Below, piece by piece: positions 5,385 to 28,248 of a stretch of 32,000 nucleotides of DNA. How positions within the stretch are numbered: position 1 is the stretch's first letter; each line of letters starts with the position of its first letter. The stretch lies in assembly GCF_000474215.1 (NCBI RefSeq), contig NZ_BAUC01000010.1, positions 89,382-121,381 on the forward strand, given 5' to 3'. The notes under the pieces were generated by a model. The model saw only the letters and a program-made list of their open reading frames with translations. It was not told where the DNA came from and searched no databases. The position numbers and the translations under genes were made by a program. This DNA is from Edwardsiella hoshinae NBRC 105699 = ATCC 33379. GTDB taxonomy: Bacteria; Pseudomonadota; Gammaproteobacteria; Enterobacterales; Enterobacteriaceae.

Positions 5385-6194
5385 TTAACGGCGACTCATC
5401 GCCTCTGATTTCGCAATACAACGGCCGATCGCTTCAATCACCGCGGCTCGCATTCCTCTCTCTTCCAACGCAGCAACCGCCTCAATCGTAGTACCGCCGG
5501 GCGAGCAGACCATGTCTTTCAATTCAGCAGGATGTGTGCCAGTCTCCAACACCATCTTAGCCGCGCCCATCACCGCCTGAGCGGCGAACTGATATGCCTG
5601 AGCACGCGGCATCCCCGCCTGTACCGCCGCATCCGCCATCGCCTCAATAAACATGAAGACATAGGCCGGTGCCGAACCGCTCACCCCGACTACAGCGTGG
5701 ATCAGCCCCTCTGGCACGACCTCCGCACGCCCGAAGCTCCGGAACAGGGCGACGATACGCGCACACTCCTCGGCACTGACGCGACTGTTAGGCGTCACCG
5801 AAGACATGCCGGCATTGACTAATGAAGGGGTATTCGGCATCACTCGCACCACTTTCTGCTGTGCCGCTAACCCTTCCTGTAGGGTGGCTAACGTCACGCC
5901 CGCCGCAATAGAGACCACGATAGTTTCGGGACGCAACGCTGACTTAATCTCACCCAATAGGGCTCCCATACCATTGGGCTTCACCCCCAGAACCACGATA
6001 TCCACCTCGGCTACCAGCGCCTGAGCATTCTCCGCCGCCTTTACGCCATATTCATCGACGATGGCTCTGACGCTATCCGCAGTACGGTTATACACCCAAA
6101 TATCTTGCGCCCGTGCACATTGGCTGGTGAGCAGCCCTCCGAGGATAGCCCGGCCCATGTTGCCACAGCCGATAAAACCGATTTTTTGCTCCAT
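5385..6194 (-). CDS. proC: Pyrroline-5-carboxylate reductase
   Basis: 269 aa, the same length as E. coli ProC. It starts MEQKIGFIGCGNMG and contains MPNTP, SGSAPAYVFMFIEAMADA and CSPGGTTIEA. Confidence 0.9.
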   Translation of the reverse strand: MEQKIGFIGCGNMGRAILGGLLTSQCARAQDIWVYNRTADSVRAIVDEYGVKAAENAQALVAEVDIVVLGVKPNGMGALLGEIKSALRPETIVVSIAAGVTLATLQEGLAAQQKVVRVMPNTPSLVNAGMSSVTPNSRVSAEECARIVALFRSFGRAEVVPEGLIHAVVGVSGSAPAYVFMFIEAMADAAVQAGMPRAQAYQFAAQAVMGAAKMVLETGTHPAELKDMVCSPGGTTIEAVAALEERGMRAAVIEAIGRCIAKSEAMSRR

Positions 6195-6564
6195 ACATCC
6201 TCCAACCCAGGCTTTCAGTATTAAGACGGGGGGTCGGCTTCAGACCCACCCTACTCGCGCCAGACTACCACCAAGCGCCAGGGAAAAATATGCCGTTCAC
6301 ACAAGGGCACGGAACGACCACATCGTCACTAAAATAGCCGGTTACGGCGGAGTAAGAACAGCGAAGGAACATGACGGGCAGAGAATGACAACAGCATACG
6401 CCACGGCAACTCTCCACATCACGCTGGAGCAGCGGCACTAACCTCCTTGACGAAGCGAGCGCCTTCACGCGCGCTAAAGGGAGAGGCCGGATAACGCTTA
6501 TCGTGGTACTCCGCGGCCATCTCGGCATCAAGTATGGATAGCACAGCATGCACCGCCTCACCCA

Positions 6565-6591
6565 CCCACGTGACCCACGTGACCCACGTGA
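6565..6591. repeat. Three perfect tandem copies of a 9-bp unit CCCACGTGA, each with a CACGTG palindrome
   Basis: Read directly from the sequence. The repeat lies immediately downstream of the idi stop codon. Confidence 0.9.
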
Positions 6592-6592
6592 C

Positions 6593-7141
6593 TCAGCCTG
6601 GATGAGCGGCGAGATGCTGCAAGACTTGTGGCAGACAGAGACGGAACCATGGCGTGTAGTCATTCGGCTGCTGGGCCATATGCTGTAGGATCTGCTCGGG
6701 AGTACGCCAGACAAATGCATCGACTTCTGCCAGATTCATCTGTGGATTCTGCTCGCTACGGCCAACGAAAACACGAGTGAGCTCATGTTCGGTCAACCCT
6801 TGGCCAACATCCACTCGGTAATACAGCGTCATGAGCGGATCTAACGCACACTGCATCCCCATCTCTTCTTGCAAACGACGCGTCGCCGCCTGCTCGATCG
6901 CCTCCCCTGGCAACGGATGGCTACAGCACGTATTACTCCACTGCCCACCCGCGTGGTATTTACCGGCCGCACGCCGTTGCAACAACAACTCACCCCGCGC
7001 ATTAAAGAGATAAACAGACAGGGCTCGGTGCAAGCATCCTTCACGGTGCGCCGCTAACTTCTCCATCCGTCCTAACGGTTTATCCTGCCGATCAACCAGA
7101 ACAACCTCAATCACCCGACTCCCCTCCCACCGATGCAACAT
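6593..7141 (-). CDS. idi: Isopentenyl-diphosphate delta-isomerase, type 1 (Nudix fold)
   Basis: 182 aa. The motifs LHRALSVYLFN, WSNTCCSHP and TEHE fit type-1 IDI. Confidence 0.8.
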   Translation of the reverse strand: MLHRWEGSRVIEVVLVDRQDKPLGRMEKLAAHREGCLHRALSVYLFNARGELLLQRRAAGKYHAGGQWSNTCCSHPLPGEAIEQAATRRLQEEMGMQCALDPLMTLYYRVDVGQGLTEHELTRVFVGRSEQNPQMNLAEVDAFVWRTPEQILQHMAQQPNDYTPWFRLCLPQVLQHLAAHPG

Positions 7142-7417
7142 GGAACGCTACCGTGTCATCGCGGATACACGGTACAAGAGTCGGCTACCATACCTTATCC
7201 CTGCCCACCTTTTTAGTATTGAACGGCTTTTCTTGTGAAAAATCTGACAATAGCACACCTTACGCTCTATCACGCATGGGAGATAAACAGGAGAGAAATG
7301 CATTAACGACGCCCGCAAATCGCGGATCACAACGCATCTGCCACCAGGTGTAAGACGGAGAAAACGCAGCGACATCCTTGTCAAACCACACCCGCCAGCA
7401 AAAGGGAAAGCACAGAA

Positions 7418-8182
7418 CTAGGGCAACATCACCCCATCACGATAACGATGCACATAATTCAACGGCGTCATGCCGTAATACTCCTTAAATACCGAAATAA
7501 AGTAAGAGGTGCTGCTATAACCACACAGTGCCGAAACCTGTGAAATGTTCTTATTGAAGACTAATAGCTGCTCTACCGCGTAGCGCATGCGGCAATCGGT
7601 GACAATTTTACTGTAGCTGGTCTGCTCATTTTTTAGTTTTTTCTTTAATGAGCTCGGACTCAGACACAGGCAACTGGCCACCGTCGTTAGACTCCAGGTC
7701 TTGTTGATATCGCTTTGAATAATGTTATAGACATTTGCACTGATGTTATTCCGCACCATCCGCATCAAGAAAGGAATAAAATTCTTATTGTTAAGAAAAA
7801 TGGATAGCGCGGCAAACGTCAGCGAACGCTTGCGTTCATACTCGATTTCATCGATATCCCGCATCACCGAGTGGCGCGCAGCCTCTTTGAAGACATATGG
7901 CGTTCGACAAGGCTCTATCATATAGACTGGAAAATTACGCGCTATCGGGGCATAGTTAGTAAGATCTTTTTTCAGAAAGTGCAGATAGTCTTTTATCAAA
8001 TCACGATTGATATACAGCACATAAGACGGCTCTAATGCCGAAAAGTCTATTGCATCACTTTCCACAGAAATCAACATCAAATGATTTGCATTAAACTTAA
8101 CCGGCTCGCCTTCGCTAAATCTGACATTTACATCACTTTCTGTTAAAACTATCGCACAACATTCATCACAGCAAAGTTTCAT
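7418..8182 (-). CDS. AraC/XylS-family transcriptional regulator (GadX/AppY-like architecture)
   Basis: 254 aa. It has a C-terminal double HTH (WSLTTVASCLCLSPSSLKKKLK..; ISQVSALCGYSSTSYFISVFKEYYGMTP). The gene is AT-rich relative to its neighbours. Confidence 0.8.
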   Translation of the reverse strand: MKLCCDECCAIVLTESDVNVRFSEGEPVKFNANHLMLISVESDAIDFSALEPSYVLYINRDLIKDYLHFLKKDLTNYAPIARNFPVYMIEPCRTPYVFKEAARHSVMRDIDEIEYERKRSLTFAALSIFLNNKNFIPFLMRMVRNNISANVYNIIQSDINKTWSLTTVASCLCLSPSSLKKKLKNEQTSYSKIVTDCRMRYAVEQLLVFNKNISQVSALCGYSSTSYFISVFKEYYGMTPLNYVHRYRDGVMLP

Positions 8183-8445
8183 AGCAGAACATCCTACAAA
8201 AAATGAACAAAATGCCTTATCTCACTACCACATCGTGGTGCTAGCGCATAGCATAAAAGAGAAGCCCAAAATTGGCCCCAATAATAAAATAACATACCGA
8301 ATAATATTATTATTTCAATGCCAGTCGCAAATTTCAACTGTAGCGTTATCTTTACACAAAAGATTGTTCAAATCTCACCTATAAATCCATCTTACTTTTG
8401 TACTAAACAGACCTAACATTAATAACTATCGATTATATCCAAATG

Positions 8446-8471
8446 AAAAAAGCGCGGAGTATTCTCCGCGC
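8446..8471 (-). terminator. Orphan rho-independent terminator
   Basis: The minus strand reads GCGCGGAG-AATA-CTCCGCGC followed by TTTTTT. No annotated gene ends near it. Confidence 0.5.
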
Positions 8472-9042
8472 AATGATTACCTAGTTATTATAATGCTACG
8501 ATCTCTTTGCTACATTATCGTCAGTAGAGTACCGACAATAATTCTACCTGACGTAGGACTTATTACCGCTATCCTAGCCACATGCAGAAAAATCCGCACG
8601 CCATCCGCACCTAACGTCAATAATCCTGCATAATACCCTAGCAAATCTGCCTACAATAAAATTCTAGGCACACCACATGATGACCTTTATTATCATGCTA
8701 CGCTTACCGCGATGCAAATGGTAAAAAGCAGAGGACGGGAAACAAGAATCAATGGATAATCAAAACGTTAAATAAATAAATTAGCCAAATAGCACCATGA
8801 GTATTTACTCCGAAGGCGTATTTTTTTGTCTCATCGTTGTATCGGATCGTCGCCGCTCCCAGGCAAAATCTCACATATCACCGATAAGAAAAAAGCACCG
8901 CCTAGACACGCTCAATGACGCTAGCCAATCACCTGTTACCCGCTACCATAAAGGTTAGCGCTAACGACATGGGGCTGCGCCCGTACCCCCCACGCAGCCC
9001 ACCAGGCAAACACCTCAAGCCATCAAGAAACCGCGCTCCACT

Positions 9043-9471
9043 TTAGCGGATCACCAACACATTGGTCTTGGCATGACGGACAATAGCTGCCGCATTCGAT
9101 CCCAGCAGATACGTCTTCACACTGGGACGATGTGAACCCACCACGATCAAATCGGCGCCCATCTCTTCTGCCTGCAACAATGCCTCATCACGCGGAGTAC
9201 CGAAGCGAATGGTGTAAGACATTCGCTCACGAGGCAGATCGATACGATCGATCAACGTCAGTAACTTCTCCTCTGCGTTCGCCACTGCTTTATTTTCAAA
9301 CTCTTTGATTCCAAAGGAGTATGCTGTGACGAATGCCTGGGCATCAGGCAACACATACAGGAAATGCACCTCGGCATCCGTCAGTTTAGCCATGTAAATC
9401 ACATGCTCTAGCGCATTTTGCGTCAGCAGGTCCTCTTCGATATCGACAGGTACTAAAATGTTCTTATACAT
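9043..9471 (-). CDS. Universal stress protein, UspG/UspF-like
   Basis: The ORF spans 9043..9510. The preferred start is MYKNILVPVD at 9471, preceded by GGAAGAGGGAG. This gives 142 aa ending GSNAAAIVRHAKTNVLVIR, as in UspG/UspF. Confidence 0.85.
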   Translation of the reverse strand: MYKNILVPVDIEEDLLTQNALEHVIYMAKLTDAEVHFLYVLPDAQAFVTAYSFGIKEFENKAVANAEEKLLTLIDRIDLPRERMSYTIRFGTPRDEALLQAEEMGADLIVVGSHRPSVKTYLLGSNAAAIVRHAKTNVLVIR

Positions 9472-10101
9472 CGTCACTCCCTCTTCCTGACTCACCGTAA
9501 AACAGCACAATTCCCGCGTAGCTCAGCACACCGAGCCTCCGTCACGACTCCCCCAGGCGCTCTGGCCTAACACGCTAAGCATACTGCCTGATAAGAATAG
9601 ACAACATTGTGTTACCACGCTTTTGTGAGATACCACAGGGTATGACCTCCACTCCCCATCCTACACCCTGATGAAAACGCGCACCGGCACTTCGTCATCC
9701 ACTAGCGCAGTGTAAGCTAGTGCACAAGCGTAACCCGACACTTTTCATTTCACGTCAAATGATAACGCATCGCTAAGCTCAGCGCGAAAATCAACAATCA
9801 AACGAAAACACGATAATTTTTTTATTCTCCATTATTTCTTCATTTTTTATCGTACTCAGCGACAATGTGAAGGAATTATAAATAAGCCCAAATACAGAAC
9901 GCTTTTTTGTTTTTACCGCACCCCTTTTGCATATTATCACATTGTATTCAACAGCACTTTACGTTAAATACGCAAGCAGACAGCATAAAAATCCCACGCT
10001 ATAATCGTCGATAAATAGCACAGAGAATTTAAATACTCACGATGAGTAGGGCATGACATGCACCTAATTCTTAACAGAAGAACCCTTACCCGGAGTCCAT
10101 T

Positions 10102-10248
10102 ATGAGATATATCGTCTTATTGCTCGCCGCCCTAGCACTAAGTGGCTGCGCCCATACCCCTCCAGTCCACAACAATAATTTCGGCAATCTCGCCGATTGT
10201 GGCATGTGTAGCTACAACGATACCTTCTTTGCCAGCTTCGACGAGTAA
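10102..10248 (+). CDS. Small putative lipoprotein (48 aa)
   Basis: It falls below the ORF-track size cut-off. GGAG lies 6 nt upstream of the ATG. The sequence MRYIVLLLAALALSGC has a signal peptide and a lipobox (L-S-G-C). Confidence 0.55.
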   Translation: MRYIVLLLAALALSGCAHTPPVHNNNFGNLADCGMCSYNDTFFASFDE

Positions 10249-10602
10249 TCGTGGGCAACGAAGCCTCCCCGTTGCCCCAGCATCTGCGGCTCGCCCCGCA
10301 AGCCTCCACTAAGCGAGCCGCCCGATGACGCTTGGCGCATCTCACCGCCTCATCAGCCCGTAACCACACCCACACAGGTAATGCCGCAGAAGCCATGGGA
10401 CAACCTGCTCACGCATCCAGCCACAGCAGTGGCATTTACCACTCAGCGTGTAGGCTTGCCCCATCGCGACGAAAAAAACGAAACGCTCTCAACACGCGCC
10501 GCCAAGAGAATGGCTCAGGCCCCCACCTCGCACAACCGCACCATACACCGTCGGCGACTCGACGAAAACGACACCGTCACGCTTTATCATAGCCACGTGC
10601 AC

Positions 10603-10947
10603 TCAATCGACCAGATGTGTTGCTGCGAGCGCGTTGACAAACTCACGCTTAAGCAAAATATCGGAGATAAAAATCACCGTAATATGCTGCTCCTCTTGAA
10701 TATAGGCGGCACGAAAACAGTGTGGTTTCAGCACGATTTTATATTCTAGAATAGTTTTTCCCCGATGCTTTAACCCCCAAGCTGCCTTAATCTTATGGGG
10801 GCGCTGACGGATAATCTGCGCTAATTCATGGTAGAGATTTGCTTTGACCGCCGCCTCGTCACGCGCAAATTTTTTAAAAAATGCGCGTATCGCCGTATTG
10901 TCATCAATAGTCACCGTTAATGCCGCTGCAAAGAGATCCCCACTCAT
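10603..10947 (-). CDS. Possible RelE/ParE-fold toxin-like protein (tentative)
   Basis: 114 aa, taken from the ATG preceded by a strong AAGGAGG. The C-terminal pattern LEYKIVLKPHCFRAAYIQEEQHITVIFISDILLKREF resembles the RelE/ParE beta-sheet core. The assignment rests on pattern only. Confidence 0.35.
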   Translation of the reverse strand: MSGDLFAAALTVTIDDNTAIRAFFKKFARDEAAVKANLYHELAQIIRQRPHKIKAAWGLKHRGKTILEYKIVLKPHCFRAAYIQEEQHITVIFISDILLKREFVNALAATHLVD

Positions 10948-11042
10948 GCCATCCTCCTTCATCACCCAGCTCCCCCAAAACGGTGAGTGTTCAAGTGAAA
11001 TAGGGTAGCGCGCCAGCGCTGCACACGACATCTCAAATCTAC

Positions 11043-11381
11043 TCAGCTACCTGCGAGGGAGACAATGACTAAAACCACCCGTCGCAGACCCATGGCATGC
11101 AGCATCGCGTCAATTTTCGTCTGTACCGCCGTGCCCCGCCCCCGGCTCTCCTCCACCTGCGCCCCCTGTCCAGAGGAAACACCACATTCGTCCGCCATCT
11201 TGTCCCACAGCAACGCTCCAACCTCCTGAATGATGAGAGCGCTGATACAGTGTTCTCTTTCCTCAACGCCAGTTGAATCGACGAAACTCGGAGCCCCTCA
11301 TTCCGGTATCATAACCCGCGGGCAAGAGCCCCACAGGAGCCATTCATCGCACCTCGGCCAAACTGCCTTCCCTCGATACAC
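11043..11381 (-). pseudogene. XRE/HigA-like HTH antitoxin, apparently interrupted by an in-frame TGA
   Basis: My own translation of one minus-strand frame gives ..ISALIIQEVGALLWDKMADECGVSSGQGAQVEESRGRGTAVQTKIDAMLHAMGL.. , which is HTH-like. The same frame has a TGA at 11298-11300. The first ATG after it is at 11198. Confidence 0.35.
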
Positions 11382-11404
11382 ATACGCGAATTATCGCCTG
11401 CACG

Positions 11405-11794
11405 TTAGGCATCGGCCTGAAATAAGGGAAGCAAATCTACGCCTGCATTTAAGGTTGCCAATTGGCGTATGGCGATCGCCGCCTCTTTCGGCGGTGTCTT
11501 GCGTGTTCTTTTCAAAAAGGCATGCAATACCACCAGATCGTTCGTACGGTTTAGCGTAAACAACACCCGCGCAGACTGCGCGCCGCAATCCACCCGTAGT
11601 TTATAAATGGTACCTTTGTACCCCCATATCGCGGGCTTGAGGATCTTCAGACCGGAAGCAGCATAGATCGTATTCTGTGCACTGAAGGCCGCCAACTTCT
11701 TGTTGATCGCCTCGGCTAATTTCCCAGATGCCTGCGCAAAAAAATACGCGAGCGGTGCCCCCGCCTCCTCAGCCGAAAGACAAAGAATTTTCAT
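11405..11794 (-). CDS. HigB/Gp49-like (DUF891, RelE superfamily) toxin
   Basis: The sequence ..IYKLRVDCGAQSARVLFTLNRTNDLVVLHAFLKRTRKTPPKEAAIAIRQL.. matches the Gp49-family signature (LHAF-KKTqKTP) as recalled. The start is at 11794 (MKIL) or 11809. Confidence 0.7.
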   Translation of the reverse strand: MKILCLSAEEAGAPLAYFFAQASGKLAEAINKKLAAFSAQNTIYAASGLKILKPAIWGYKGTIYKLRVDCGAQSARVLFTLNRTNDLVVLHAFLKRTRKTPPKEAAIAIRQLATLNAGVDLLPLFQADA

Positions 11795-12131
11795 ACTGTG
11801 CTTACCCATAATTGTTCTTGGGGACCCAACAGGTATTGAGCGACCATCCCACGCAATGCCCCACGTCGTAACGGATAATACGTGATTGCTTAATACACAG
11901 ACCCTCCCGCGCGTTACTATTAGATAATCGGCGCATCAGCCAGTTGACAGATGCACACCCTTGGCGCAAAACAGCATGGCATGATGTGCAAGTAACCTAA
12001 GCGTACTGGACTGCCCCCAGAAACCACTTGATGCCGGTTGAAGCTGGTTGATCTCAGGATACAAAGAGGGATTGATATATAAGGGATTACAAGGGGTTTT
12101 ATTGACGTCGGGAGAGTTCGGTAGAGGCTAA

Positions 12132-12152
12132 TTGGCGGAAGATCACAGGAGT
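12132..12152. repeat. attL, a duplicated 3' end of tRNA-Sec
   Basis: TTGGCGGAAGATCACAGGAGT is identical to 21972-21992. Confidence 0.85.
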
Positions 12153-12275: not shown

Positions 12276-12440
12276 CAGCAAAAAAACTTTTTTTAGGAAA
12301 AACCGTTCACACTGTTCACTGTGCATTTTTATCGTTTAAATTCATTGCATTACACCGTGAATGGTTGGTGAACAGTGAACACTTTACTGTTCATTTTTAC
12401 GGGTTTTCAGGCAAAAAAAGACCGGCTGCGGCTGGTCTGG
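12276..12440. repeat. Copy 1 of a ~165-bp block (TGTTCAC-type iterons plus a terminator-like hairpin)
   Basis: It aligns with 12607-12770, with about a dozen mismatches by eye. It contains about six direct or inverted (C/T)GTTCAC motifs. Confidence 0.8.
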
Positions 12441-12580
12441 ATACAGATACAGGCGCCGCTGACGCGAGATGATGTTGGCATGATCAACATACACCCCCAT
12501 CCGACTCCGGCAGCGCTTCATTGGAGTTCTGGTGTGACTGGAGCAGCGCGCAGGCACTCATCGGGTCACTGAGCTGCTAC
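12441..12580 (-). pseudogene. Relic fragment of a second alpha (primase-helicase) 3' region
   Basis: 12441-12516 aligns with 12985-13060 of the intact alpha gene. After a ~57-bp deletion, 12520-12578 aligns with about 13122-13180. Confidence 0.65.
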
Positions 12581-12606: not shown

Positions 12607-12770
12607 ACAGAAAAAACTTTTTTTAGGGAAAACCGTTCACACTGTTCACTGTGCGTTTTTATCGTTTAAATTCATTGAATTACACCGTGAACGGTTGGTG
12701 AACAGTGAACACTTTACTGTTCATTTTTGAGGGTTTTCAGATAAAAAAAGACCGGCGGCTGCCGGTCTGG
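12607..12770. repeat. Copy 2 of the iteron block (crr/ori-like alpha-binding iterons)
   Basis: Same block as 12276-12440. The P4 ori and crr are known to consist of TGTTCACC-type iterons. Confidence 0.75.
12743..12768 (-). terminator. Rho-independent terminator of alpha
   Basis: The minus strand reads AGACCGGC-AGCC-GCCGGTCT followed by TTTTTTT, 13 nt after the alpha stop codon. Confidence 0.75.
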
Positions 12771-12780
12771 TTCGGTGGTA

Positions 12781-15108
12781 TTACTCTGGCGCGTCACACT
12801 TTGGTAGCCAATCGGCGTTACTCTCCTCCCTCAGCGCAAGATTGGTCTGTATGCCCTGATTTTTACGGCGCTTCTCATAATTCACCCCGTACTCTTTCAG
12901 CATCGCGGGCAACCCCTTGCCGAACATGGTGAGGCTGAGCGTGTTCTTGTAGCCGTGTGCCTCCATATACGCCAGGTAGGCATGATACAAATACAGGCGC
13001 GGCTGACGCGGGATGATGTTGGCATTGCCAATATACATGCCATCCGGCTCTGGCAGCGCCTCAAGGTAGCCACAAAAATCAAATGCCGGATCGGCATCGC
13101 GTTTGATGCAGAGTGCCTCATCGGAGTTCTGCTGTGCCTGGAGCAGTGTGCGGGCCGTCATCGGGTCGCTGAACTGCTGCATCAACTGGCGCACAATCAC
13201 CGCCAACTCGCAGGCGATTTTCTCCTTAAGCTGTGGGTCGCGCTCCTCCGGGGCAATCTGCTCCGGGAAATGCAGAATTACCCGGCGGCGGGAAACGCCG
13301 CCGCTGCGATCGGTAAAGCGCATCGGGTTATTGTTCACCGCCAGGATCACCGCCGGAATATGGGTGGAGTACGGGTTCTGGTATTTCGGATCAACAGAGA
13401 CGGCATCCCCGCCGGTAATGGCCTTAAGTCCCGCGCCGTCACCGCTCCACTTCTCCTGATCAGGTAGACGTATCAGCGAGAAACCAATCAGGGATGCGCG
13501 CTTGCGCGGATCTTCCAGTGTGTCGATGTCAGCCGAGGTGGCGTTATCCGCCCCGGCCAGCAAGGTGGCAATCTCGGCCAGAATGCTTTTTCCGCTGCCG
13601 CCCGGCCCGGTCACTTCGAGAAAAAGCTGCCAGTCGTAACGGTTCGCCAGCACCATAAACAGGGCGGCCAGTATCACATCGCGTTTATCGGCACGACCAC
13701 CGGCGGCACGGTCAAGCCAGCGCCAAAAATTCGGTGCATGGGTTTCCAACGTTTCACCCGCCACGGGTGGGGTGAAATCCACGTCGCACAGCGTGCGCAA
13801 CCAGTGTGATTTACAGTGTGGGCTAAAGATCCCGATGCTGGTATCGAGTACCCCGTTACGAAAGCCAATCAGACGACGCGCCGGTATATCCTGCTGCGGA
13901 ATAATCAGTTTCAGGGTATCAATGACCGAGGCAATTTTCCCCGACGAGAACGGCGCGCGCAGGCGCTGAAACAGCCCGGCCACATCACGGGCAAAATCGG
14001 ATGATGGAATGATTTTCCATATCCCGGCCTCATAGCGTGACAATAGCTGGCCGTTAGCATCGACGGCCAACGCTTCGCCGTAATGCTCATGCACCCGCAT
14101 CGCCTTTTCACTGGTGCTCATGGCGGTAAACTCCGCCTCGCTCATGGTGTTAAACGGGCTCTCCGCTACGGGGCGGATAGCGTCATAAATCGCTTTCCGC
14201 GTGGCCGCCTCGCCTTTCTGCATAAAGGCATCATTCCAGTCACCGAACACCGGCGGCTGGGCAACCATGCCCTCACAGGCTTCTGCGGCCGCGGCGGCTT
14301 TGGTCTGACCGTCGCCGTTGAGGTCACGGTCGGCTGCCAGGACAATCTGACAGGCCGGGTATTTCTGACGGGCAAGGCTAACCAGAGAAAGGAGGTTCAC
14401 GGACGACAGCGCCACCATCACCGTTTCATCAGTCAGATGATGTACGGTGAGGGCCGTGGCATAGCCCTCCACAATCCACAGACGTTTCCCGGCCTGTTTC
14501 TGGCCATCAATGGTATGGCAGGTGCCTTTTACCTGTCCGCCTTTCAGCGTGCGTTTCAGGCCGTCTGTGTTGATAAGCTGGAGATTCACCAGCGATCCGC
14601 CCTCGTCATACAGCGGCACCACCAGATCCCCGGCCCGATAAATGACCCCGCCGGTTTTGTGCGTGGCTGTCAGCACTGCGCACGCATGAGCGGGGAACCC
14701 CTTGCGGATCAGGTAGGCATTCGCGGAGGCCGTGCGGGTTTTGGCCATCAGTTTTACGGCCAGCGCGGCTGCCGCTTTGCGGTCGGCATCGGTTTTAGCC
14801 TCTGCGGCCGCAATCACCTCCGGGGCAACCGGCGGCAGGGTGCCGATCACCGCGTTCACCTTATCGGCCGCGACTGATGCCGTAACACCCAATACCTTTT
14901 CGACCAGCGTCAACCCATCCCCGGCACCGCACTGGTTACAGAGCCAGGTGCCTCGCCCCTCCTTGTCATCAAAGCGAAAGCGATCTGTACCGCCGCATAC
15001 CGGGCAGGGCTGATGGCGGTTTTTCACTATCCTCATCCCCAGCGCTGGCAGAATGTGTAACCAGTGGCCGCGCGCCAGATTAACGGTGTCCGTGACGTTC
15101 ATGTTCAT
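12781..15108 (-). CDS. P4 alpha-like primase-helicase (zinc-binding, Toprim and D5-type helicase regions)
   Basis: 775 aa. The N-terminus has CPVCGGTDRFRFDD..WLCNQCG. A Walker A motif (GPGGSGKS) is present. GGGAG lies upstream of the ATG. Confidence 0.9.
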   Translation of the reverse strand: MNMNVTDTVNLARGHWLHILPALGMRIVKNRHQPCPVCGGTDRFRFDDKEGRGTWLCNQCGAGDGLTLVEKVLGVTASVAADKVNAVIGTLPPVAPEVIAAAEAKTDADRKAAAALAVKLMAKTRTASANAYLIRKGFPAHACAVLTATHKTGGVIYRAGDLVVPLYDEGGSLVNLQLINTDGLKRTLKGGQVKGTCHTIDGQKQAGKRLWIVEGYATALTVHHLTDETVMVALSSVNLLSLVSLARQKYPACQIVLAADRDLNGDGQTKAAAAAEACEGMVAQPPVFGDWNDAFMQKGEAATRKAIYDAIRPVAESPFNTMSEAEFTAMSTSEKAMRVHEHYGEALAVDANGQLLSRYEAGIWKIIPSSDFARDVAGLFQRLRAPFSSGKIASVIDTLKLIIPQQDIPARRLIGFRNGVLDTSIGIFSPHCKSHWLRTLCDVDFTPPVAGETLETHAPNFWRWLDRAAGGRADKRDVILAALFMVLANRYDWQLFLEVTGPGGSGKSILAEIATLLAGADNATSADIDTLEDPRKRASLIGFSLIRLPDQEKWSGDGAGLKAITGGDAVSVDPKYQNPYSTHIPAVILAVNNNPMRFTDRSGGVSRRRVILHFPEQIAPEERDPQLKEKIACELAVIVRQLMQQFSDPMTARTLLQAQQNSDEALCIKRDADPAFDFCGYLEALPEPDGMYIGNANIIPRQPRLYLYHAYLAYMEAHGYKNTLSLTMFGKGLPAMLKEYGVNYEKRRKNQGIQTNLALREESNADWLPKCDAPE

Positions 15109-15910: not shown

Positions 15911-15914
15911 TCAT

Positions 15915-15995
15915 GGGTGGTGACCCGGACGGGGGTAGGAATACCGGCCTTATTGGAAACCGGCCAGCCCGAAGGCTGCCCCGCCCGGGCCACCA
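15915..15995 (-). ncRNA. CI/C4-type antisense immunity RNA (candidate)
   Basis: The minus strand reads GGUGGCCCGG..CAGCC-UUCG-GGCUG..CCGGUAUUCCUACCCCC..CCGGGUCACCACC. A closing stem joins the 5' and 3' ends. The exposed CCGGUAUUCCUAC is complementary (11 of 13 positions) to the boxes at 15896-15910 and 16103-16117. Confidence 0.5.
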
Positions 15996-16061
15996 TTATC
16001 TGACAGGGGCCATGGTGTAAGCACCACAGCCCAGAAAATGGGTATGCCTGGACAACGACGC

Positions 16062-16084
16062 AAAAAAAGACGCCTGGCGCGTCT
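16062..16084 (-). terminator. Rho-independent terminator inside the immunity leader
   Basis: The minus strand reads AGACGC-GCCAG-GCGUCU followed by UUUUUUU. It lies between the seqA-like box and the CI-like RNA. Confidence 0.55.
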
Positions 16085-16102
16085 GGTGTCGCCAATAAGT
16101 AA

Positions 16103-16117
16103 CTCGGGTTCCTACGC
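16103..16117 (-). promoter_or_regulatory. seqA-like target box of the immunity RNA
   Basis: The minus strand reads GCGUAGGAACCCGAG, followed by UUACUUAUUGG. This is the same flank as at the seqC-like box. Confidence 0.45.
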
Positions 16118-16146
16118 CCGGCTGCCGATTTTGCGACAGCGGAAAA

Positions 16147-16954: not shown

Positions 16955-17027
16955 ACCGTGATCGCTCGTGTGGTTGTGTGGTGCGTTGCAGAATGATTTC
17001 ACCTTGATCACGCAGCAGGAGAAGACC

Positions 17028-17780
17028 ATGAAACCAACCACTCACCCCCAACAAGAGACGGCGATCCCCGCCGTGCTGGATAAGGCATTCCAAGTGCTGG
17101 AGAGCGCCAAAACTCATCATCTGAATAACGTGCACCGGATGGATGAAATCCAGCATGCCATCGAGCAGGCCCAACAGCAGAAAACCCGTCTGGAACAAAC
17201 GGGCCTCGATGATACGCAAGCCTGGCGCGAGCAATTCCTGCGCAATGGTGCCGTGCTCACCGATGAGCTCAAGCAACAGCATATGGAGCGTGTCGCCCGC
17301 CGGGAGCTGATGCAAGAGTGTGAGAACGCTGCCGAGGTATTGGCTTATGAACTCGAGCAGGGAAAGGGCACATGTTGCAGCTCAGCAAAAGCCTACCGTG
17401 ATGCACACTTTTCGCTGTTAAACGACTACGTGCAGCGCGAGTTTGAGACCACCCTGTCACAGGGAGCCCCTGCACTCATCCGGGCAATCAAGCTCAAAAT
17501 TTTCGCCTTGCAACAACAACGCTATCGCGCTGGCCATCATGACATTGAATCGGCCGAAAAAGAGGTTCTGGCAGAAATCAGTCGATGGCTGAAAGCGCAA
17601 GTAGACCAATATGAGATCCGTTTAAACGATGAGCCGGTACTGTACAAAATAGGGTTATCGCCCAGCCCACTCCCCCATATGGACTATGAGCTCGCCGCAA
17701 CACCGGCACAGAGCATGCGTTTTTACGAAGAAATGCAGCAGCGTAAAGCCCAGCTTCAGGCGCGGGGGCTGATCGCATGA
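17028..17780 (+). CDS. sid: Sid-like capsid size determination protein
   Basis: 250 aa, taken from MKPTTHP (the ORF opens at 16968). The segments LTDELKQQHMERVARRELMQE, LPHMDYELAATPAQ and LQARGLIA match P4 Sid as I recall it. Confidence 0.7.
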   Translation: MKPTTHPQQETAIPAVLDKAFQVLESAKTHHLNNVHRMDEIQHAIEQAQQQKTRLEQTGLDDTQAWREQFLRNGAVLTDELKQQHMERVARRELMQECENAAEVLAYELEQGKGTCCSSAKAYRDAHFSLLNDYVQREFETTLSQGAPALIRAIKLKIFALQQQRYRAGHHDIESAEKEVLAEISRWLKAQVDQYEIRLNDEPVLYKIGLSPSPLPHMDYELAATPAQSMRFYEEMQQRKAQLQARGLIA

Positions 17781-18019
17781 TGCATTGCCCTTTTTGCGGT
17801 AAATCCGCCCATACCCGCAGCAGCCGATACTTATCGGATAACGTCAAGCAACGCTATCACCAGTGCACCAATGTTCACTGCTCGGCGACGTTCCGCACGC
17901 TGGAATCCATCGATGAAATTATCCATCAGCCAGCCAAGCCGGTAACGGCAGAACGGCCAACACCACAGGCGGAGCCGCGCCGGGTATCCGGTTGCTATCG
18001 ATCTCCCTTTTCACATTAA
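17777..18019 (+). CDS. Ogr/Delta-family zinc-finger late transcription activator (single-domain, phiR73-like)
   Basis: 80 aa. It has CPFCG..(22 aa)..CTNVHC, a CxxC...CxxxxC pattern. There is an ATGA overlap with sid. Confidence 0.85.
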   Translation: MMHCPFCGKSAHTRSSRYLSDNVKQRYHQCTNVHCSATFRTLESIDEIIHQPAKPVTAERPTPQAEPRRVSGCYRSPFSH

Positions 18020-18033
18020 CCGAGAACACCAAC

Positions 18034-18609
18034 ATGACGACAACCCCATTACAAAAAGCGGCAATGGCGTGCCAAGCGGCCAAAACACGTTGGCAGGATA
18101 GCCGTCAGGCATGGACCAAGGCGACGCTAGAGATGGCTAGCCTACAGGCCGATAGCAGCGGCAAGTCTGGCGATCGCCTGGCCTATCTGCGTGAATTGAT
18201 CGCCGTGAAACAGTGGGAGATGAATCAACACGCTGATCGATACCTACATGCCCATGATGAACTGTTGCGTGTCAGTGTGCGTACGGAGCTGCGCAGCTTC
18301 ATGCAACGTCACGGCACCGAGCTGCTCAGTGCGCTGGCCCCGGAGTTAATGGGGCTGAATCATCAGCCGGAACTGTTACGCACACGGGCCGCCGATCGGG
18401 CACTGGAATACCTGCGGGAGGCGCTGGCCGTCAGTATGACCATCAGCCCGGCCATTGAGTACGCCGAGGCCAGTCGGGATATTTTAAACAGTGCGGGACT
18501 ACGGCCAGAAACAGCGGCCCGGCAGGATGCCATCAGCCGCACGACGCCTGCCGAAAACCTGAAATTTATGCACCGAAAAATCGCACTGGAACAGCAGCGC
18601 CCGGCATAA
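18034..18609 (+). CDS. psu: Psu-like polarity suppression / capsid decoration protein
   Basis: Starting at MTTTPLQ gives 191 aa, close to the ~190 aa I recall for P4 Psu. The segments QWEMNQHADRY and FMQRHGTELLSALAPELMG resemble Psu. Confidence 0.7.
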   Translation: MTTTPLQKAAMACQAAKTRWQDSRQAWTKATLEMASLQADSSGKSGDRLAYLRELIAVKQWEMNQHADRYLHAHDELLRVSVRTELRSFMQRHGTELLSALAPELMGLNHQPELLRTRAADRALEYLREALAVSMTISPAIEYAEASRDILNSAGLRPETAARQDAISRTTPAENLKFMHRKIALEQQRPA

Positions 18610-18775: not shown

Positions 18776-18794
18776 GGCGAGGCGGGGAAAGCAT
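18776..18794. other. cos cohesive-end sequence of P2/P4 type
   Basis: GGCGAGGCGGGGAAAGCAT matches 18 of 19 positions of the P2/P4 cohesive end GGCGAGGCGGGGAAAGCAC, recalled from memory. Confidence 0.7.
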
Positions 18795-18900
18795 TGCGCG
18801 CTAGGCGCTTAGCTAAAGTAATTGATTCAGAGGATAAAAACGCGTAGAAAAAGGTGTGAAACTTCCCCTATCAGTGCTCCACTTAAAGGATAAATAGAAA

Positions 18901-20586
18901 ATGAGCATTATTCACGTAAATCAAATTGGCAGCAAAGTTCAGGCGTTATTCGCTGATAAAATTGATAGCAGTGATCTCAATCCTAACGATAAAGAAATAC
19001 AAACTAAAAGATTGACTCGTTGTCTTTCTGCTTACGCTGTGTTTTGTATTGGAGATACCTCGATAGATGAGGCCGCGTCAGCAGTTGTTGATGGCGCCGA
19101 TGATAATGGTATTGATGCAATTCATTATTCTCCTTCAAGTAAAAGAATGATTATTGTTCAATCCAAATGGAAAAAGGATGGAACAGGAGAGCCTGATAAT
19201 GGTGATTTAAGAAAGTTTAAAGATGGTGTATTGGACCTCATTAATCTTGAGCTTGATAAATTTAATAACAAAATCAATCTAAAAAAACAGATGATTGAAA
19301 CTGCTTTAGGTGAGTTTGATACAAAATTTGATCTTGTTTTAATTCACACGGGTTCAAATACTCTAAGCAAACATAACCAACAAGTAATGGATTCAATTCT
19401 TAATGAATTAAACGATGCCGGTGATGGAACCAGTGAGGATGTTGTTAGTTTCCATCATCTAAATCAAGCGATAATTCATAGTGGACTTGCTTCGGGTATG
19501 GATGGGGAACCAATCGATCTGGAAATCGGTCTTTCACAATGGGGAAAAATTGAAGAGCCACATCAAGGTTTTTTCGGGATTGTAGCTGGCGAAGAAGTTG
19601 CAAATTGGTGGATAAAAAAGGGGAAAAGACTATTTGCCAAAAATATTAGACAAATGTTAGGTGCCACTGAAGTAAATGATGAAGTTAAGAGAACAATTGA
19701 AGAACAACCTGAGAAATTTTGGTATTACAATAACGGTATAACTATTGTTGCTGAATCTATAAAAAAATCGATGGTTGGTGGAAATAGTAGAGAGATTGGT
19801 TCGTTTAAAGCGAGCAATATCAGCATTGTTAATGGAGCCCAGACTGTAAGCGTAATTGGTAAATATGCGCAAGAAGGAGGGGAAAATCTTGCTAAATTGC
19901 GTTTACCTATCCGATTAATTTCACTAGAAGGTGCGCCAGAAGGCTTTGGTGCAACTGTGACAAAAACTAATAACCGTCAAAATAAAATCGAAAGCAGAGA
20001 CTTTGTTTCCTTAGATGATGAGCAAATACGGTTGAAAAGAGAACTGTCACTGGAAGGAATTGAGTATAATATAGTAAGAAGTGAGAACGTTAAAACATCT
20101 ACTAGCATAATCGATTTATCTGAGGCGACCATTGCATTGGCTTGTGCGTCTACGCAGGTTGGCCTAGCAGTTCAGGCGAAAAGAGAAATCGGTCGTTTCT
20201 ATGACAATCTTAATAAAGCACCATATAAAACAATTTTCAACCCGCAAACCAATGGCATTTATTTGCGAAATACTGTTTTCGCGTTACGCAGAATAGATGA
20301 AATAATCAGCTCAATGATTTCGAATATACCTAAAAAATCTGGCAAAGAATATGGTGTTCTTGTTCATGGGAATAGGATGTTGGCATTTTTGGTTTTTAGG
20401 AAGTTGGTAATACATAAAATCGCAAATAACTTTGATTTTGATATTTCTTCTATTGATTGGTATGAAACCACATCAGATATGCTTGGGAAATTAATATTTG
20501 AAATTGAAGAAAATTATAAGGATAAATTTCTTGCTAGTTTATTTAAGAATGCAAGTATTTGTAAGGCCATATCCGAGAAAATTTAA
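18901..20586 (+). CDS. Stand-alone AIPR-family (abortive infection phage resistance, PF10592-like) protein with an N-terminal PD-(D/E)xK-like motif
   Basis: 561 aa and strongly AT-rich. It has VVDGADDNGIDAIHY..MIIVQSKW near the N-terminus. The central segments NIRQMLG..FWYYNNGITIVA..ISIVNGAQT match the AIPR signature as recalled. It occupies the cos-int cargo slot. Confidence 0.75.
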   Translation: MSIIHVNQIGSKVQALFADKIDSSDLNPNDKEIQTKRLTRCLSAYAVFCIGDTSIDEAASAVVDGADDNGIDAIHYSPSSKRMIIVQSKWKKDGTGEPDNGDLRKFKDGVLDLINLELDKFNNKINLKKQMIETALGEFDTKFDLVLIHTGSNTLSKHNQQVMDSILNELNDAGDGTSEDVVSFHHLNQAIIHSGLASGMDGEPIDLEIGLSQWGKIEEPHQGFFGIVAGEEVANWWIKKGKRLFAKNIRQMLGATEVNDEVKRTIEEQPEKFWYYNNGITIVAESIKKSMVGGNSREIGSFKASNISIVNGAQTVSVIGKYAQEGGENLAKLRLPIRLISLEGAPEGFGATVTKTNNRQNKIESRDFVSLDDEQIRLKRELSLEGIEYNIVRSENVKTSTSIIDLSEATIALACASTQVGLAVQAKREIGRFYDNLNKAPYKTIFNPQTNGIYLRNTVFALRRIDEIISSMISNIPKKSGKEYGVLVHGNRMLAFLVFRKLVIHKIANNFDFDISSIDWYETTSDMLGKLIFEIEENYKDKFLASLFKNASICKAISEKI

Positions 20587-20610
20587 TCTAACCTCTCCGC
20601 TATATTAAGA

Positions 20611-20628
20611 ATGCCGCTTATGCGGCAT
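20611..20628. terminator. Bidirectional hairpin between the AIPR gene and int
   Basis: ATGCCGC-TTAT-GCGGCAT, with T-rich sequence after it on the plus strand. Confidence 0.55.
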
Positions 20629-20638
20629 TTGTCTATTA

Positions 20639-21811
20639 TCAGAAAACTGAATAGATATAATTACTGTACCATTGCATCATAGAGCGCCTTTTCTCTAAAT
20701 ACTGAGCATGGTTATATGTTCCACGAATACTATTTTTATCAACATGTGCCAATTGTATTTCAATCCATGAGCTATCAAACCCTTGTTCGTGCAATATTGT
20801 TGACATGGTATGTCGAAAACCGTGACCTGTAGCACGGCCTTTGTAGCCAATCAACTCAATTACCTGTGAAACACTTTCTTTTGAGATCGGCTTGCTACGG
20901 TTGCTCCTTCCAATAAAAATGTATGGGTAATGTCCTGTAATAGGATTGAGTTGCTCAAATAAGGTAATTACTTGTGTAGATAAGGGAACAATGTGTGGTC
21001 TACGCATTTTCATTCGTTCTGCCGGTATTTCCCATATACCCCTTTCAAGGTCTACTTCATCCCACGTAGCAAAGCGCATTTCCTGCGTTCTTACACCCGT
21101 TAACATGACTATCTTAGTCGCATTTTTAGTGATGATACTGCCGGTATAGGCTTCAAGATCTCTGATAAAATGAGGCAATTCTTCGGCGGATAAGAAAGGA
21201 TGATGTTTTTGCTTCGGTATGGCCAATGCGATAGCTAGATCAGGTGCAGGGTTATACTCAGCACGGCCAGTAATAATCGCGTATCTAAATACCTCTCCGC
21301 ACCGCTGGCGTACTTTACGTGTTTTCTCCAGTGCTCCACGTTTCTCAATTCGTCGCAACACTTCAAGTAATTCTAACGGTTTGATCTCACCGACAGGACG
21401 TTTGCCGATGAACGGGAAAACATCTTGCTCAAAGGTCTTAATGATTTCGTCGCGATATGCCACTGTCCAGCGGTCAGCTTTGTTTGCATGCCATTCGCGG
21501 CTTATGGCTTCGAATGAGTTTTCTGTTGAAAGCTGCTGTGCCAGTTTTTGCGCCTTCCGTTCCTCAACCGGGTCGATTCCATTAGCAACTTGCTTACGGG
21601 CGACCTCGCGCTTTTCACGGGCTTCTGCAAGGCTCACCAAATCGTGGCTACCAAATGACATTAACCGCGCTTTCCCGGCAAAGCGGAAACGGAAACGCCA
21701 GCCCTTCGAGCCATCGGGATTGATAAGCAATGACAGACCTTGCCCATCGTTCAATGTGTATGGCTTGTCTTGGGGCTTTGCTCGTTTGATTTGTATATCT
21801 GTAAGTGCCAT
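20639..21811 (-). CDS. int: P4-type tyrosine integrase
   Basis: 390 aa. The N-terminus (MALTDIQIKRAKPQDKPYTLNDGQGLSLLINPDGSKGWRFRF) is DUF4102-type. The catalytic region includes HGFRHT and an LAHVDKNSIRGTYNHAQY-type tyrosine motif. It lies adjacent to the tRNA 3' end. Confidence 0.9.
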   Translation of the reverse strand: MALTDIQIKRAKPQDKPYTLNDGQGLSLLINPDGSKGWRFRFRFAGKARLMSFGSHDLVSLAEAREKREVARKQVANGIDPVEERKAQKLAQQLSTENSFEAISREWHANKADRWTVAYRDEIIKTFEQDVFPFIGKRPVGEIKPLELLEVLRRIEKRGALEKTRKVRQRCGEVFRYAIITGRAEYNPAPDLAIALAIPKQKHHPFLSAEELPHFIRDLEAYTGSIITKNATKIVMLTGVRTQEMRFATWDEVDLERGIWEIPAERMKMRRPHIVPLSTQVITLFEQLNPITGHYPYIFIGRSNRSKPISKESVSQVIELIGYKGRATGHGFRHTMSTILHEQGFDSSWIEIQLAHVDKNSIRGTYNHAQYLEKRRSMMQWYSNYIYSVF

Positions 21812-21971: not shown

Positions 21972-21992
21972 TTGGCGGAAGATCACAGGAGT
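21972..21992. repeat. attR core, within the selC 3' end
   Basis: Identical to 12132-12152. Confidence 0.85.
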
Positions 21993-22067
21993 CGAACCTG
22001 CCCGGGACCGCTGGCGGCCCCAACTGGATTTGAAGTCCAGCCGCCTCACCGGAGACGACGATCTTCC
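21973..22067 (-). tRNA. selC: tRNA-Sec (anticodon UCA)
   Basis: The reverse complement is GGAAGATCGTCGTCTCCGGTGAGGCGGCTGGACTTCAAATCCAGTTGGGGCCGCCAGCGGTCCCGGGCAGGTTCGACTCCTGTGATCTTCCGCCA. It is 95 nt with a long extra arm and matches E. coli selC as recalled. Confidence 0.9.
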
Positions 22068-26368: not shown

Positions 26369-27107
26369 CTCACTGGGCCGGCGGATACGGCGCCCCCTTG
26401 ACGCGCTTACCTACGACACCCGGCCCTGCCGCATTTTCACCCACTCACCGTATCGCCTCTCCGCTCGCGGAATGAACGCGTCATATGCTTATCTCGCTCA
26501 CACCTTTTTCCTGCTTGCCCCTCTCCCAGAAGACGCATCATCGCAGGACAAATCAATAATAGGTGATTTAGGTATTTATATTTTCAGCATTTTTTATTTT
26601 TAACGCATCATTTTTTAGAGTGTTTAGTATTTTAGATCAAATGCATTATTTTTAATAACATCATTCAAAATTTTTATTTTCATATTTTTAGATTAAAACT
26701 AAATAATTATGCAATGATAAATAAGCTAATTTTATCGAATTCGGTCAATTTCCATTATTTTTATATTATTGTTTTATAAGAATCGCAGCCTTTACAGCTA
26801 AAAATAACTTTCTTTATAGCTGATAAACCCAATTAATAGTGAAGTAATGGTGTTTGATTTTATAATTTCAACTTTGTACAGGAAAAGAGATCACATATAA
26901 TGCATCAAGCAATATAAAACACTATATTTTACGGGGAATAACAACCACGCCCATAAGAGGCAGTCGCGAATGTAGATTATTGCTAGCGATAACCGATAGC
27001 TCATTACAGCGTATATGACATGCCTGATCTCGGCGAGTTTGGCCAGACCCCATGGGGGGAAAGTAATCATGAGAGTGCCTCTTTCACATCAACGACGATA
27101 TCGATGT

Positions 27108-27365: not shown

Positions 27366-27629
27366 ATGAAAAAAATAGAATTCATTCATCCTGGTTATGC
27401 TTTGCAGCCTGGGGAAGTAACCGAAGAGCAATTTCGCCTGCTGGTCGATATCTCGTCCGTGCGTAGCGCAAAGGTCATCATGGCATTACGCGATTATTTT
27501 GTTCTGGGACACAGCAGGAAATTGGTCTGCGAACGCAATCAAGTCAATCCTGGTTATCTTTCCATTAAAATAAGGGAAATACAGGCGCTATGTAAGCGTA
27601 TCTTAGAACTTTACCCCCATCTCAACTAA
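27366..27629 (+). CDS. PapB/FaeB-family fimbrial-type transcriptional regulator (orphan)
   Basis: 87 aa. PGEVTEEQFRLLVDISSVRSAKVIMALRDYFVLGHSRKLVCERNQVNPGYLS parallels PapB (..SEMHFFLLIGISSIHSDRVILAMKDYLVGGHSRKEVCEKYQMNNGYFS..) as recalled. Confidence 0.75.
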   Translation: MKKIEFIHPGYALQPGEVTEEQFRLLVDISSVRSAKVIMALRDYFVLGHSRKLVCERNQVNPGYLSIKIREIQALCKRILELYPHLN

Positions 27630-28167: not shown

Positions 28168-28248
28168 GGGAAAACCTCTGTTAAGGCCGCGTCGCTATCC
28201 GGCCCTCTTCCGCCAGACACCACGCGTGGTTGATAAAATCGGGTTTGA

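Follow-up and report, generated by a model that had tools for sequence, protein, structure and literature searches.

We examined a window of 32,000 nucleotides from Edwardsiella hoshinae NBRC 105699 = ATCC 33379 (contig NZ_BAUC01000010.1, positions 89,382 to 121,381), which carries a P4-like satellite inserted at the tRNA-Sec gene selC. Between the cos end of this satellite and its integrase lies an AT-rich gene (18901..20586, forward strand) encoding a 561-residue protein of the AIPR family, a name that stands for “abortive infection phage resistance”. This cargo gene is an already catalogued, cloned and phage-tested AbiU/AIPR cassette, and in that sense it is already known. We think it probable, if well short of certain, that it is an AbiU-type single-gene anti-phage cassette of the P4 psu-cos/int hotspot whose product acts as a phage-triggered abortive-infection nuclease. 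The family membership, the location, the single-gene organisation and the conservation of the motifs are matters of direct observation, while the trigger, the substrate and the fate of the cell would be as proposed below, on the model of AbiU and of single-protein nucleases like Upx.

Family identity and earlier record of the cassette

The Pfam AIPR model (PF10592) scores 114 bits on the cargo protein against a cut-off of 25 (E-value 1.5e-32), with the best stretch at residues 245-390, and in a Vibrio orthologue of 63% identity the same model is covered from position 1 to 305 of its 308 over residues 245-536. The PADLOC profile for AbiU, PDLC02357, matches with an E-value of 4.7e-33 and aligns residues 50-559 of the protein with model positions 36-532 of 537; the E. 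coli orthologue (E-value 2.6e-31) and distant members of the family match it too. Over its full length the protein also matches phrog_1841, “Abi alpha-like abortive infection mechanism”, with an E-value of 1e-111. The RefSeq annotation reads “AIPR family protein”, and current defence-finding tools (PADLOC, DefenseFinder) call the gene AbiU. A first-pass annotation, made from the sequence alone, had recognised the AIPR family and proposed a run of the defence-finding tools; the Pfam score confirms the former, and the full-length PADLOC match is the outcome of the latter. One other assignment was rejected. MzaE is the AIPR protein among the five of the MZA system and has the AIPR core (residues about 226-378) in common with the cargo protein, but the N- and C-terminal regions of the two differ, the NCBIfam MzaE model gives 55 bits against a cut-off of 1050, and the neighbours of the cargo gene are psu and int, not MzaABCD.

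The gene stands by itself. Its open reading frame (ORF) starts with an ATG that has an AAGGA 11 nucleotides (nt) upstream, and it is the sole gene between cos and int, with no obligatory partner, as is expected of a stand-alone AbiU; no methyltransferase, ATPase or other partner gene was found in the slot. Across about 80 related loci no neighbouring gene family occurs in more than four, and the AbiU/AIPR gene is thus a true single-gene module. Its G+C content is 35.4% (26.7% at third codon positions), against 54.9% in the satellite backbone and 57-58% in the host flanks. The first-pass annotation had described an AT-rich, 561-residue ORF without partner genes, alone between the cos end and the integrase, in the cargo hotspot of a P4/phiR73-like satellite at selC. 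This description holds in all its parts, both for the gene and for the satellite, whose core genes, RNAs, att repeats and tRNA-Sec are described further below.

Two expression signals accompany the gene. The candidate weak promoter upstream of it (18822..18850, forward strand) consists of TTGATT (18822-18827) and TAGAAA (18845-18850) with a spacing of 17 nt. The sequence is present as first annotated and is kept in four orthologous cassettes, its conservation in those of E. coli and Phytobacter being the one point in its favour, but it falls below the criteria of a sigma-70 consensus scan, which called two promoter-like sites in the region against 7.7 expected from shuffled controls. At the other end, a terminator-like hairpin with a 9-bp stem and five G-C pairs (20609..20630, forward strand) closes the cassette; the earlier annotation had placed it, correctly, at 20611-20628. 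The 35%-GC cassette, together with its candidate promoter and its terminator, is exchanged as a unit among P4-like satellites of several enterobacterial genera.

It is worth pointing out that the same cassette has been through a phage test. Rousset et al. 2022 listed “AIPR” (WP_000022311, WP_032211572) among the cargos of the P4 hotspot, ranked it as P4-hotspot system #21 with 71 occurrences in 5,251 P4 loci, and made pFR77 by cloning the AIPR cassette from E. coli E1167 together with the native sequence upstream of it (PMC9122126). The E. coli cassette and that of the window share the same slot, psu-cos-[gene]-int-tRNA-Sec, and the same single 561-residue gene. The two proteins are 96% identical over the 399 residues printed in the published table, and the DNA of the E. 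coli P4-like slot is 93% identical to that of the window across the whole slot. The upstream DNA of pFR77 aligns with the window, with the same promoter-like element and the same terminator, and the site of its reverse primer, CGGCATTTGTCTATTATCAG, is identical to positions 20624-20643 of the window. The differences lie in the host, which is Edwardsiella and not E. coli, in the last base of the cos 19-mer, which is T and not C, and in the delta protein of the satellite, which has 80 residues against 166 in the E. coli elppa6 copy.

In MG1655, pFR77 was challenged with lambda, T4, P1, 186cIts, CLB_P2, LF82_P8, AL505_P2 and T7 (PMC9122126). The cloning and phage test that the first-pass annotation had proposed has therefore in substance been done, on a cassette whose protein is 96% identical, and pFR77 was tested but not validated. 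That annotation had presented the gene as a new candidate one-gene system, although the cassette is system #21 in the very paper it cited. It had also named outcomes that would speak against it, among them membership in an already characterised defence family and a lack of protection against phages. Since the PADLOC AbiU profile covers the full length of the protein and, provisionally, the near-identical pFR77 was not validated under its native promoter, the claim of novelty fails by its own terms.

The literature on the family extends well beyond the P4 hotspot. “AbiU1/AIPR” was written as one family by Makarova et al. 2012, who related DndB's N-terminal domain to it (PMC3506569), and AIPR has been linked in the literature to restriction-modification (RM) operons. 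In Lactococcus lactis the single gene AbiU(i) gives resistance by itself, and phage transcription is delayed (Dai 2001, reviewed in PMC13064643); AbiU-1 has been assigned to the PD-(D/E)XK superfamily in a 2026 paper (PMC13099982). In a Vibrio host, the AbiU of Vibrio breoganii provides defence when expressed from its native promoter, and the phage protein Surt neutralises it (bioRxiv 10.1101/2024.06.14.598830); AbiU was found in both the P4 and the P2 hotspots in a 2026 Nucleic Acids Research (NAR) study (PMC13586616). The earlier statement that AIPR proteins are not a validated stand-alone defence is contradicted by the lactococcal AbiU(i) (PMC13064643) and by the Vibrio AbiU (10.1101/2024.06.14.598830). 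The companion statement, that they have no described molecular mechanism, stands: we found no published mechanism for any AIPR protein in the literature searched.

The founder of the family, AbiU (AbiUi/AbiU1) of L. lactis LL51-1, is like the cargo protein a single protein of about 540-590 residues with an AIPR core, and the AbiU model matches the cargo protein over its full length. The lactococcal gene is, however, plasmid-borne and belongs to another phylum, whereas the cargo gene sits on an enterobacterial satellite. The lactococcal locus has in addition a second gene, AbiUii, encoding a HEPN protein that lowers the resistance, for which there is no counterpart in the window. The resistance phenotype of the founder is that of the lactococcal protein and is taken from the literature.

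The cassette is rare in E. coli, and the family is large. Of 5,426 complete E. coli genomes, 21 carry a 93%-identical AIPR cassette at psu-[gene]-int-tRNA-Sec; the same gene fills this slot in Phytobacter, and the nearest named homologue, at 99% identity, is from Edwardsiella piscicida. A word-indexed search returned more than 3,139 matches. When the sequences were clustered at 50% identity, at least 5,257 clusters matched with an E-value of 1e-3 or lower and 610 with an E-value of 1e-30 or lower, the latter nearly all 550-590 residues long and aligned end to end. Members were found in Proteobacteria, Bacteroidota, Verrucomicrobiota, Acidobacteriota, Cyanobacteria and Bacillota. P4 markers adjoin only orthologues that are 89% identical or more (those of E. 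coli and Phytobacter and, more remotely, of Dickeya), and none were seen beside members of 68% identity or less, which lie elsewhere; the AbiU/AIPR family is thus not specific to satellites. Temperate phages and prophages carry members as well, among them Aggregatibacter phage S1249 (53% identity), Salmonella phage RE2010 and Klebsiella prophages, and so do many plasmids. In Dickeya oryzae ZYY5 the 89%-identical AIPR gene (6001-7683 of the locus compared) adjoins an integrase and a primase that are 37% and 36% identical to those of the window, which indicates that the cassette also resides in a different type of integrative element.

Domain organisation and the predicted nuclease

All the motifs picked out in the first-pass annotation are present at the residues it gave, that is, D64-G-A-D-D-N-G-I-D72, Q87-S-K89, NIRQMLG (248-254), FWYYNNGITIVA (273-284) and ISIVNGAQT (307-315). 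Among 44 homologues of 50-95% identity, the invariant positions include D64, G65, D68, G70, D72, Q87, S88 and K89 near the N-terminus, together with N277-N278-G279 and V310-N-G-A-Q-T-V316 further on. Four of these residues (D64, G65, D68 and D72) are retained even in AIPR proteins of Enterococcus and Klebsiella plasmids at about 20% identity. The Enterococcus protein served here as a Firmicute proxy for the lactococcal AbiUi, there being no Lactococcus record among the top plasmid matches.

The protein can be divided into three parts. The N-terminal alpha/beta domain (residues 1 to about 200; 18901..19500, forward strand) is a predicted Mrr/FokI-like PD-(D/E)xK nuclease and holds both the acidic cluster D64-D72 (19090-19116) and Q87-S-K89 (19159-19167). 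The AIPR core (residues about 226-413; 19576..20139, forward strand), which contains NGAQT (19831-19845), is the only part that aligned to divergent AIPR proteins and to MzaE. The C-terminal domain (residues about 414-561; 20140..20583, forward strand) is modelled by AlphaFold as helical, with a predicted local distance difference test score (pLDDT) of 85-95, and has the invariant columns H489-G-N-R492. For the full-length model the pLDDT is 81.6 and the predicted template modelling score (pTM) is 0.42, compared with a pTM of 0.79 for a model of residues 1-232. The packing of the domains against one another is uncertain because of the low full-length pTM.

The case for a nuclease comes from fold comparison, from a recurrent profile match and from the invariant residues. 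A Foldseek search of the PDB with the full-length model gave no match better than an E-value of 0.18, whereas the model of the N-terminal domain matched FokI first (E-value 0.014, probability 0.94), followed by HamA, Bse634I and DdmD; this was the outcome of the structural check that the first-pass annotation had suggested. In the viral library BFVD, Mrr-like proteins and proteins named “endonuclease” or “PD-(D/E)XK” recur among the fold matches. Mrr_cat was the sole recurrent weak Pfam family, matched in five of 19 members with a best E-value of 0.0088. In the predicted secondary structure D72 opens the strand 73-77 and Q87-S-K89 closes the strand 82-89, a PD-(D/E)xK layout with Gln at the middle acid position and hence a variant of the motif. 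Taken together, a Mrr/FokI-type PD-(D/E)xK nuclease domain with D72 and Q87-x-K89 as its site is moderately supported. The earlier PD-(D/E)xK call agrees with the fold matches, the weak Mrr_cat matches and the invariant residues, but its middle acid is a Gln. Searches of PDB sequences with the full profile, with the N-terminal profile and with the single sequence found no relevant chain, and these searches gave no sequence link to Upx in spite of the published “close relation” of Upx to AbiU-1.

One of the viral fold matches is of separate interest. A0A8S5R4D7, an uncharacterised 223-residue protein of Podoviridae sp. ct8nN1, matched the N-terminal domain alone (E-value 1e-9, TM-score 0.63-0.65, 20% identity), which suggests that the putative nuclease module also exists as a stand-alone phage gene. 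It could act as a decoy or an inhibitor, or be a nuclease in its own right.

Two other domain assignments were considered and set aside. An N-terminal HEPN domain, which AIPR proteins have been described as having, is rejected for the cargo protein, as the domain is alpha/beta with four to five strands and no HEPN family appeared in the Pfam scans. A ParB/DGQHR core finds no support in the sequence: the motif reads NGAQT, so that Asn stands for the Asp and Thr for the Arg, no Pfam match to DUF262, DndB or ParBc was obtained at an E-value of 1 or lower, and the top 50 Foldseek matches of the full-length model included no ParB-like chain. The first-pass annotation had likened NGAQT to the DGQQR/DGQHR motif. 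The relation behind that likeness was already published (PMC3506569), but the literal motif is absent and no profile matches.

The satellite and its surroundings

The satellite is 9.86 kb long, lies at tRNA-Sec and is bounded by perfect 21-nt direct repeats. The distal att repeat, TTGGCGGAAGATCACAGGAGT (12132-12152), is a perfect copy of the 3' end of tRNA-Sec, and the second copy is at 21972-21992; the integration target is the tRNA-Sec gene itself (selC; 21973..22067, reverse strand), which was called by ARAGORN and Rfam RF01852. At the distal side lies the P4 alpha-type primase-helicase gene (12781..15108, reverse strand), which matches phrog_2249 DNA primase with an E-value of 4e-227 and the Pfam families Zn_Ribbon_Prim, Toprim_3, D5_N, DUF5906 and Pox_D5. 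Next come two RNAs of the P4 immunity region, both on the reverse strand: the C4 antisense RNA, the P4-type CI immunity RNA (15913..16000; Rfam RF01695, 87 bits against a gathering score of 45), and an isrK-type small RNA (16063..16140; Rfam RF01394, 71.5 bits against a gathering score of 50).

The genes leading up to the cargo slot are on the forward strand. The first is a Sid-like (Psu-related) capsid-size gene (16968..17780) with a match to phrog_6165 (E-value 2e-66) and a weak Pfam Psu match on the called gene, for which the NCBI call is a 250-residue form starting at 17028. It is followed by a short Ogr/Delta transactivator of 80 residues (17777..18019; Pfam Ogr_Delta, E-value 4e-21), which we take to be the phiR73-like half-size form, and by the polarity suppression protein Psu (17992..18609; Pfam Psu, E-value 3e-79; phrog_6366, E-value 1e-50), which is the left border of the hotspot. 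The delta protein has a single Ogr_Delta zinc finger and differs in length from the 166-residue delta of the E. coli selC satellite that carries the same AIPR cassette, so that the cargo is common to differing backbones. The right border of the hotspot is the P4-type tyrosine integrase (20639..21811, reverse strand; Pfam Arm-DNA-bind_3, Phage_int_M and Phage_integrase), which is 94% identical to the integrase of an E. coli selC satellite. The cos-like 19-mer GGCGAGGCGGGGAAAGCAT (18776..18794) was read directly from the DNA; it aligns with the cos region conserved among P4-like elements of E. coli and is one base off the GGCGAGGCGGGGAAAGCAC of E. coli P4-like sequences in the tables of Rousset et al. 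2022.

The satellite also contains an Ash-family gene and an AlpA-like gene. With alpha, a sid-like gene, delta, psu, int, cos, an immunity RNA and, at a tRNA gene, att repeats, the element belongs among the P4-like satellites. PADLOC found no second defence gene in it. The window matches the NCBI contig UFXZ01000001.1 (GCA_900447315.1) with no mismatches over 21.7 kb. Between the distal att repeat and the 3' end of alpha there is a 160-nt direct repeat, 93% identical (12281-12440 and 12611-12770), as well as a 54-nt repeat, 87% identical (12440-12493 and 12984-13037), that partly overlaps the 3' end of alpha. These repeats may be where the alpha protein binds, in the manner of P4 ori/crr.

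The host flanks showed several features of their own. Just beyond the distal att repeat lies a segment of lower G+C content (47.6%; 7150-12131) with genes for an AraC-family regulator (7418-8182), a universal stress protein (9043-9510) and a Gp49/HigB-like toxin (11405-11809), all on the reverse strand; the toxin gene has a weak PADLOC match to NsnC. The segment may be what is left of another island that had inserted at selC. On the other side, a stretch of 29% G+C (26501-27000) lies upstream of a gene for a PapB-family regulator (about 27366-27629), and an L31 ribosomal-protein leader (28174-28226, reverse strand; Rfam RF03157, 61 bits) lies upstream of rpmE.

Mode of action and competing explanations

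On the reading we favour, the protein would be made constitutively from the resident satellite, with the AIPR core and the C-terminal helical domain restraining the N-terminal Mrr/FokI-like nuclease (D72, Q87-x-K89 and the acidic D64/D68). A phage-derived cue, acting through the core and the C-terminal domain, would free the nuclease, and cleavage of nucleic acids would then delay or block phage gene expression, as has been reported for the lactococcal AbiU. The result would be a modest, phage-specific protection of the abortive-infection type. Among the proteins that can serve for comparison, Upx, the HamA of Hachiman and the Mrr/FokI domains likewise occur in a defence context with a predicted restriction endonuclease-like domain of the form D...(D/E/Q)xK, and Upx, for which activation by a phage protein has been reported, makes a plausible analogue. 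They are, however, devoid of an AIPR core, and their structural matches to the cargo protein are weak.

Several points weigh against an active AbiU-type nuclease. The most direct is the phage test: pFR77 appears only in Table S2B of “additional tested systems” and not among the “validated defense systems” of Table S2A (PMC9122126). In the predicted active site, Gln (Q87) takes the place of the Asp or Glu expected as the second catalytic acid. The likeness to the lactococcal AbiU is at the profile level only, by way of the PADLOC match cited above (E 4.7e-33). Finally, the V. breoganii AbiU (DS34) is classed as AbiU, consists of a single gammaproteobacterial gene and is active under its native promoter, but its C-terminal 132 residues (399 nt are printed) show no similarity to the cargo protein and no Pfam match. 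DS34 is therefore probably of another AIPR subfamily, and the validation in Vibrio may concern that subfamily; Vibrio orthologues that are 63% identical to the cargo protein do exist, though they need not be the tested ones. As for the phage test, PARIS-1 in the same study was negative under its native promoter and active once induced (PMC9122126), which makes the native-promoter negative of pFR77 weak evidence and not decisive.

A more specific version of the favoured reading can be put forward, although only tentatively, since we would not be surprised to see it fail. It proposes that the P4-borne enterobacterial AbiU is an active, phage-triggered Mrr/FokI-like nuclease gated by an AIPR core of the ParB/DndB type, for which the binding of nucleotide or DNA may be the switch, and that the published negative reflects a narrow range of triggers or low native expression.

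We consider it unlikely, while still worth keeping in mind, that the protein is instead a restriction-like enzyme of the type IV kind, in which the core recognises modified or foreign DNA and the N-terminal nuclease cuts it without death of the host. The arrangement would resemble that of GmrSD (DUF262 plus nuclease) with the order of the domains reversed. Mrr is a modification-dependent restriction enzyme, and both the only recurrent Pfam match of the family (Mrr_cat) and the Mrr-like and FokI fold matches point in this direction, as do published links between AIPR and both RM operons and DndB's N-terminal domain. The strand-to-helix junction that bears N311-G-A-Q-T315 also has, in the model, the topology to be expected for a DGQ(Q/H)R-type motif, and a narrow specificity for modified DNA would explain the negative result on the small pFR77 panel. 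That panel, on the other hand, included T4, whose DNA is modified. The motif itself departs from DGQHR/DGQQR at its Asp and Arg, neither the Pfam scans (DUF262, DndB and ParBc, E-value up to 1) nor the top 50 Foldseek matches brought up a ParB-like relative, and the founder of the family was described as an abortive infection system with delayed transcription.

Somewhat less likely still is that the cassette is ineffective against phages in Enterobacteria, being either a selfish or decaying passenger or a gene that serves the satellite against helper phages, competing satellites or plasmids. The failure to validate pFR77, on a panel that had the P2-like phage 186cIts, would fit such a role, and so would the Gln at the (D/E)xK position and the rarity of the cassette in complete E. 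coli genomes (21 of 5,426) and among P4 loci (71 of 5,251). The ORF, however, is intact, and the protein is strongly conserved over many genera and phyla, with motifs that are invariant at 50-95% identity and 610 clusters at an E-value of 1e-30 or lower. All this speaks for an active protein under purifying selection. Validated relatives are moreover known from Lactococcus and Vibrio, and the example of PARIS-1, silent until induced, applies here as well.

The view with which the first-pass annotation began, of an unrecognised one-gene system in a family never validated on its own, is highly improbable and indeed already refuted, for although the literature searched holds no mechanism for any AIPR protein and no positive phenotype is on record for the P4-borne subfamily, AIPR and AbiU are one family, AbiU has been validated as a single gene, PADLOC and DefenseFinder both call the gene, and the exact cassette has been catalogued, cloned and tested.

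What the Edwardsiella locus adds is an instance of a 35%-GC cassette, complete with a promoter-like element and a terminator, moving among the P4-like satellites of Escherichia, Phytobacter and Edwardsiella. AbiU/AIPR is a large and widespread single-protein family that was first described 25 years ago. Clear targets for mutagenesis are the nuclease-like site D72/Q87/K89 and, within the core, the NNG and NGAQT motifs, all of them invariant. If the reading as a gated nuclease is true, the trigger and the substrate would yield the first mechanism for AbiU/AIPR, a family of at least 5,257 clusters in many phyla.

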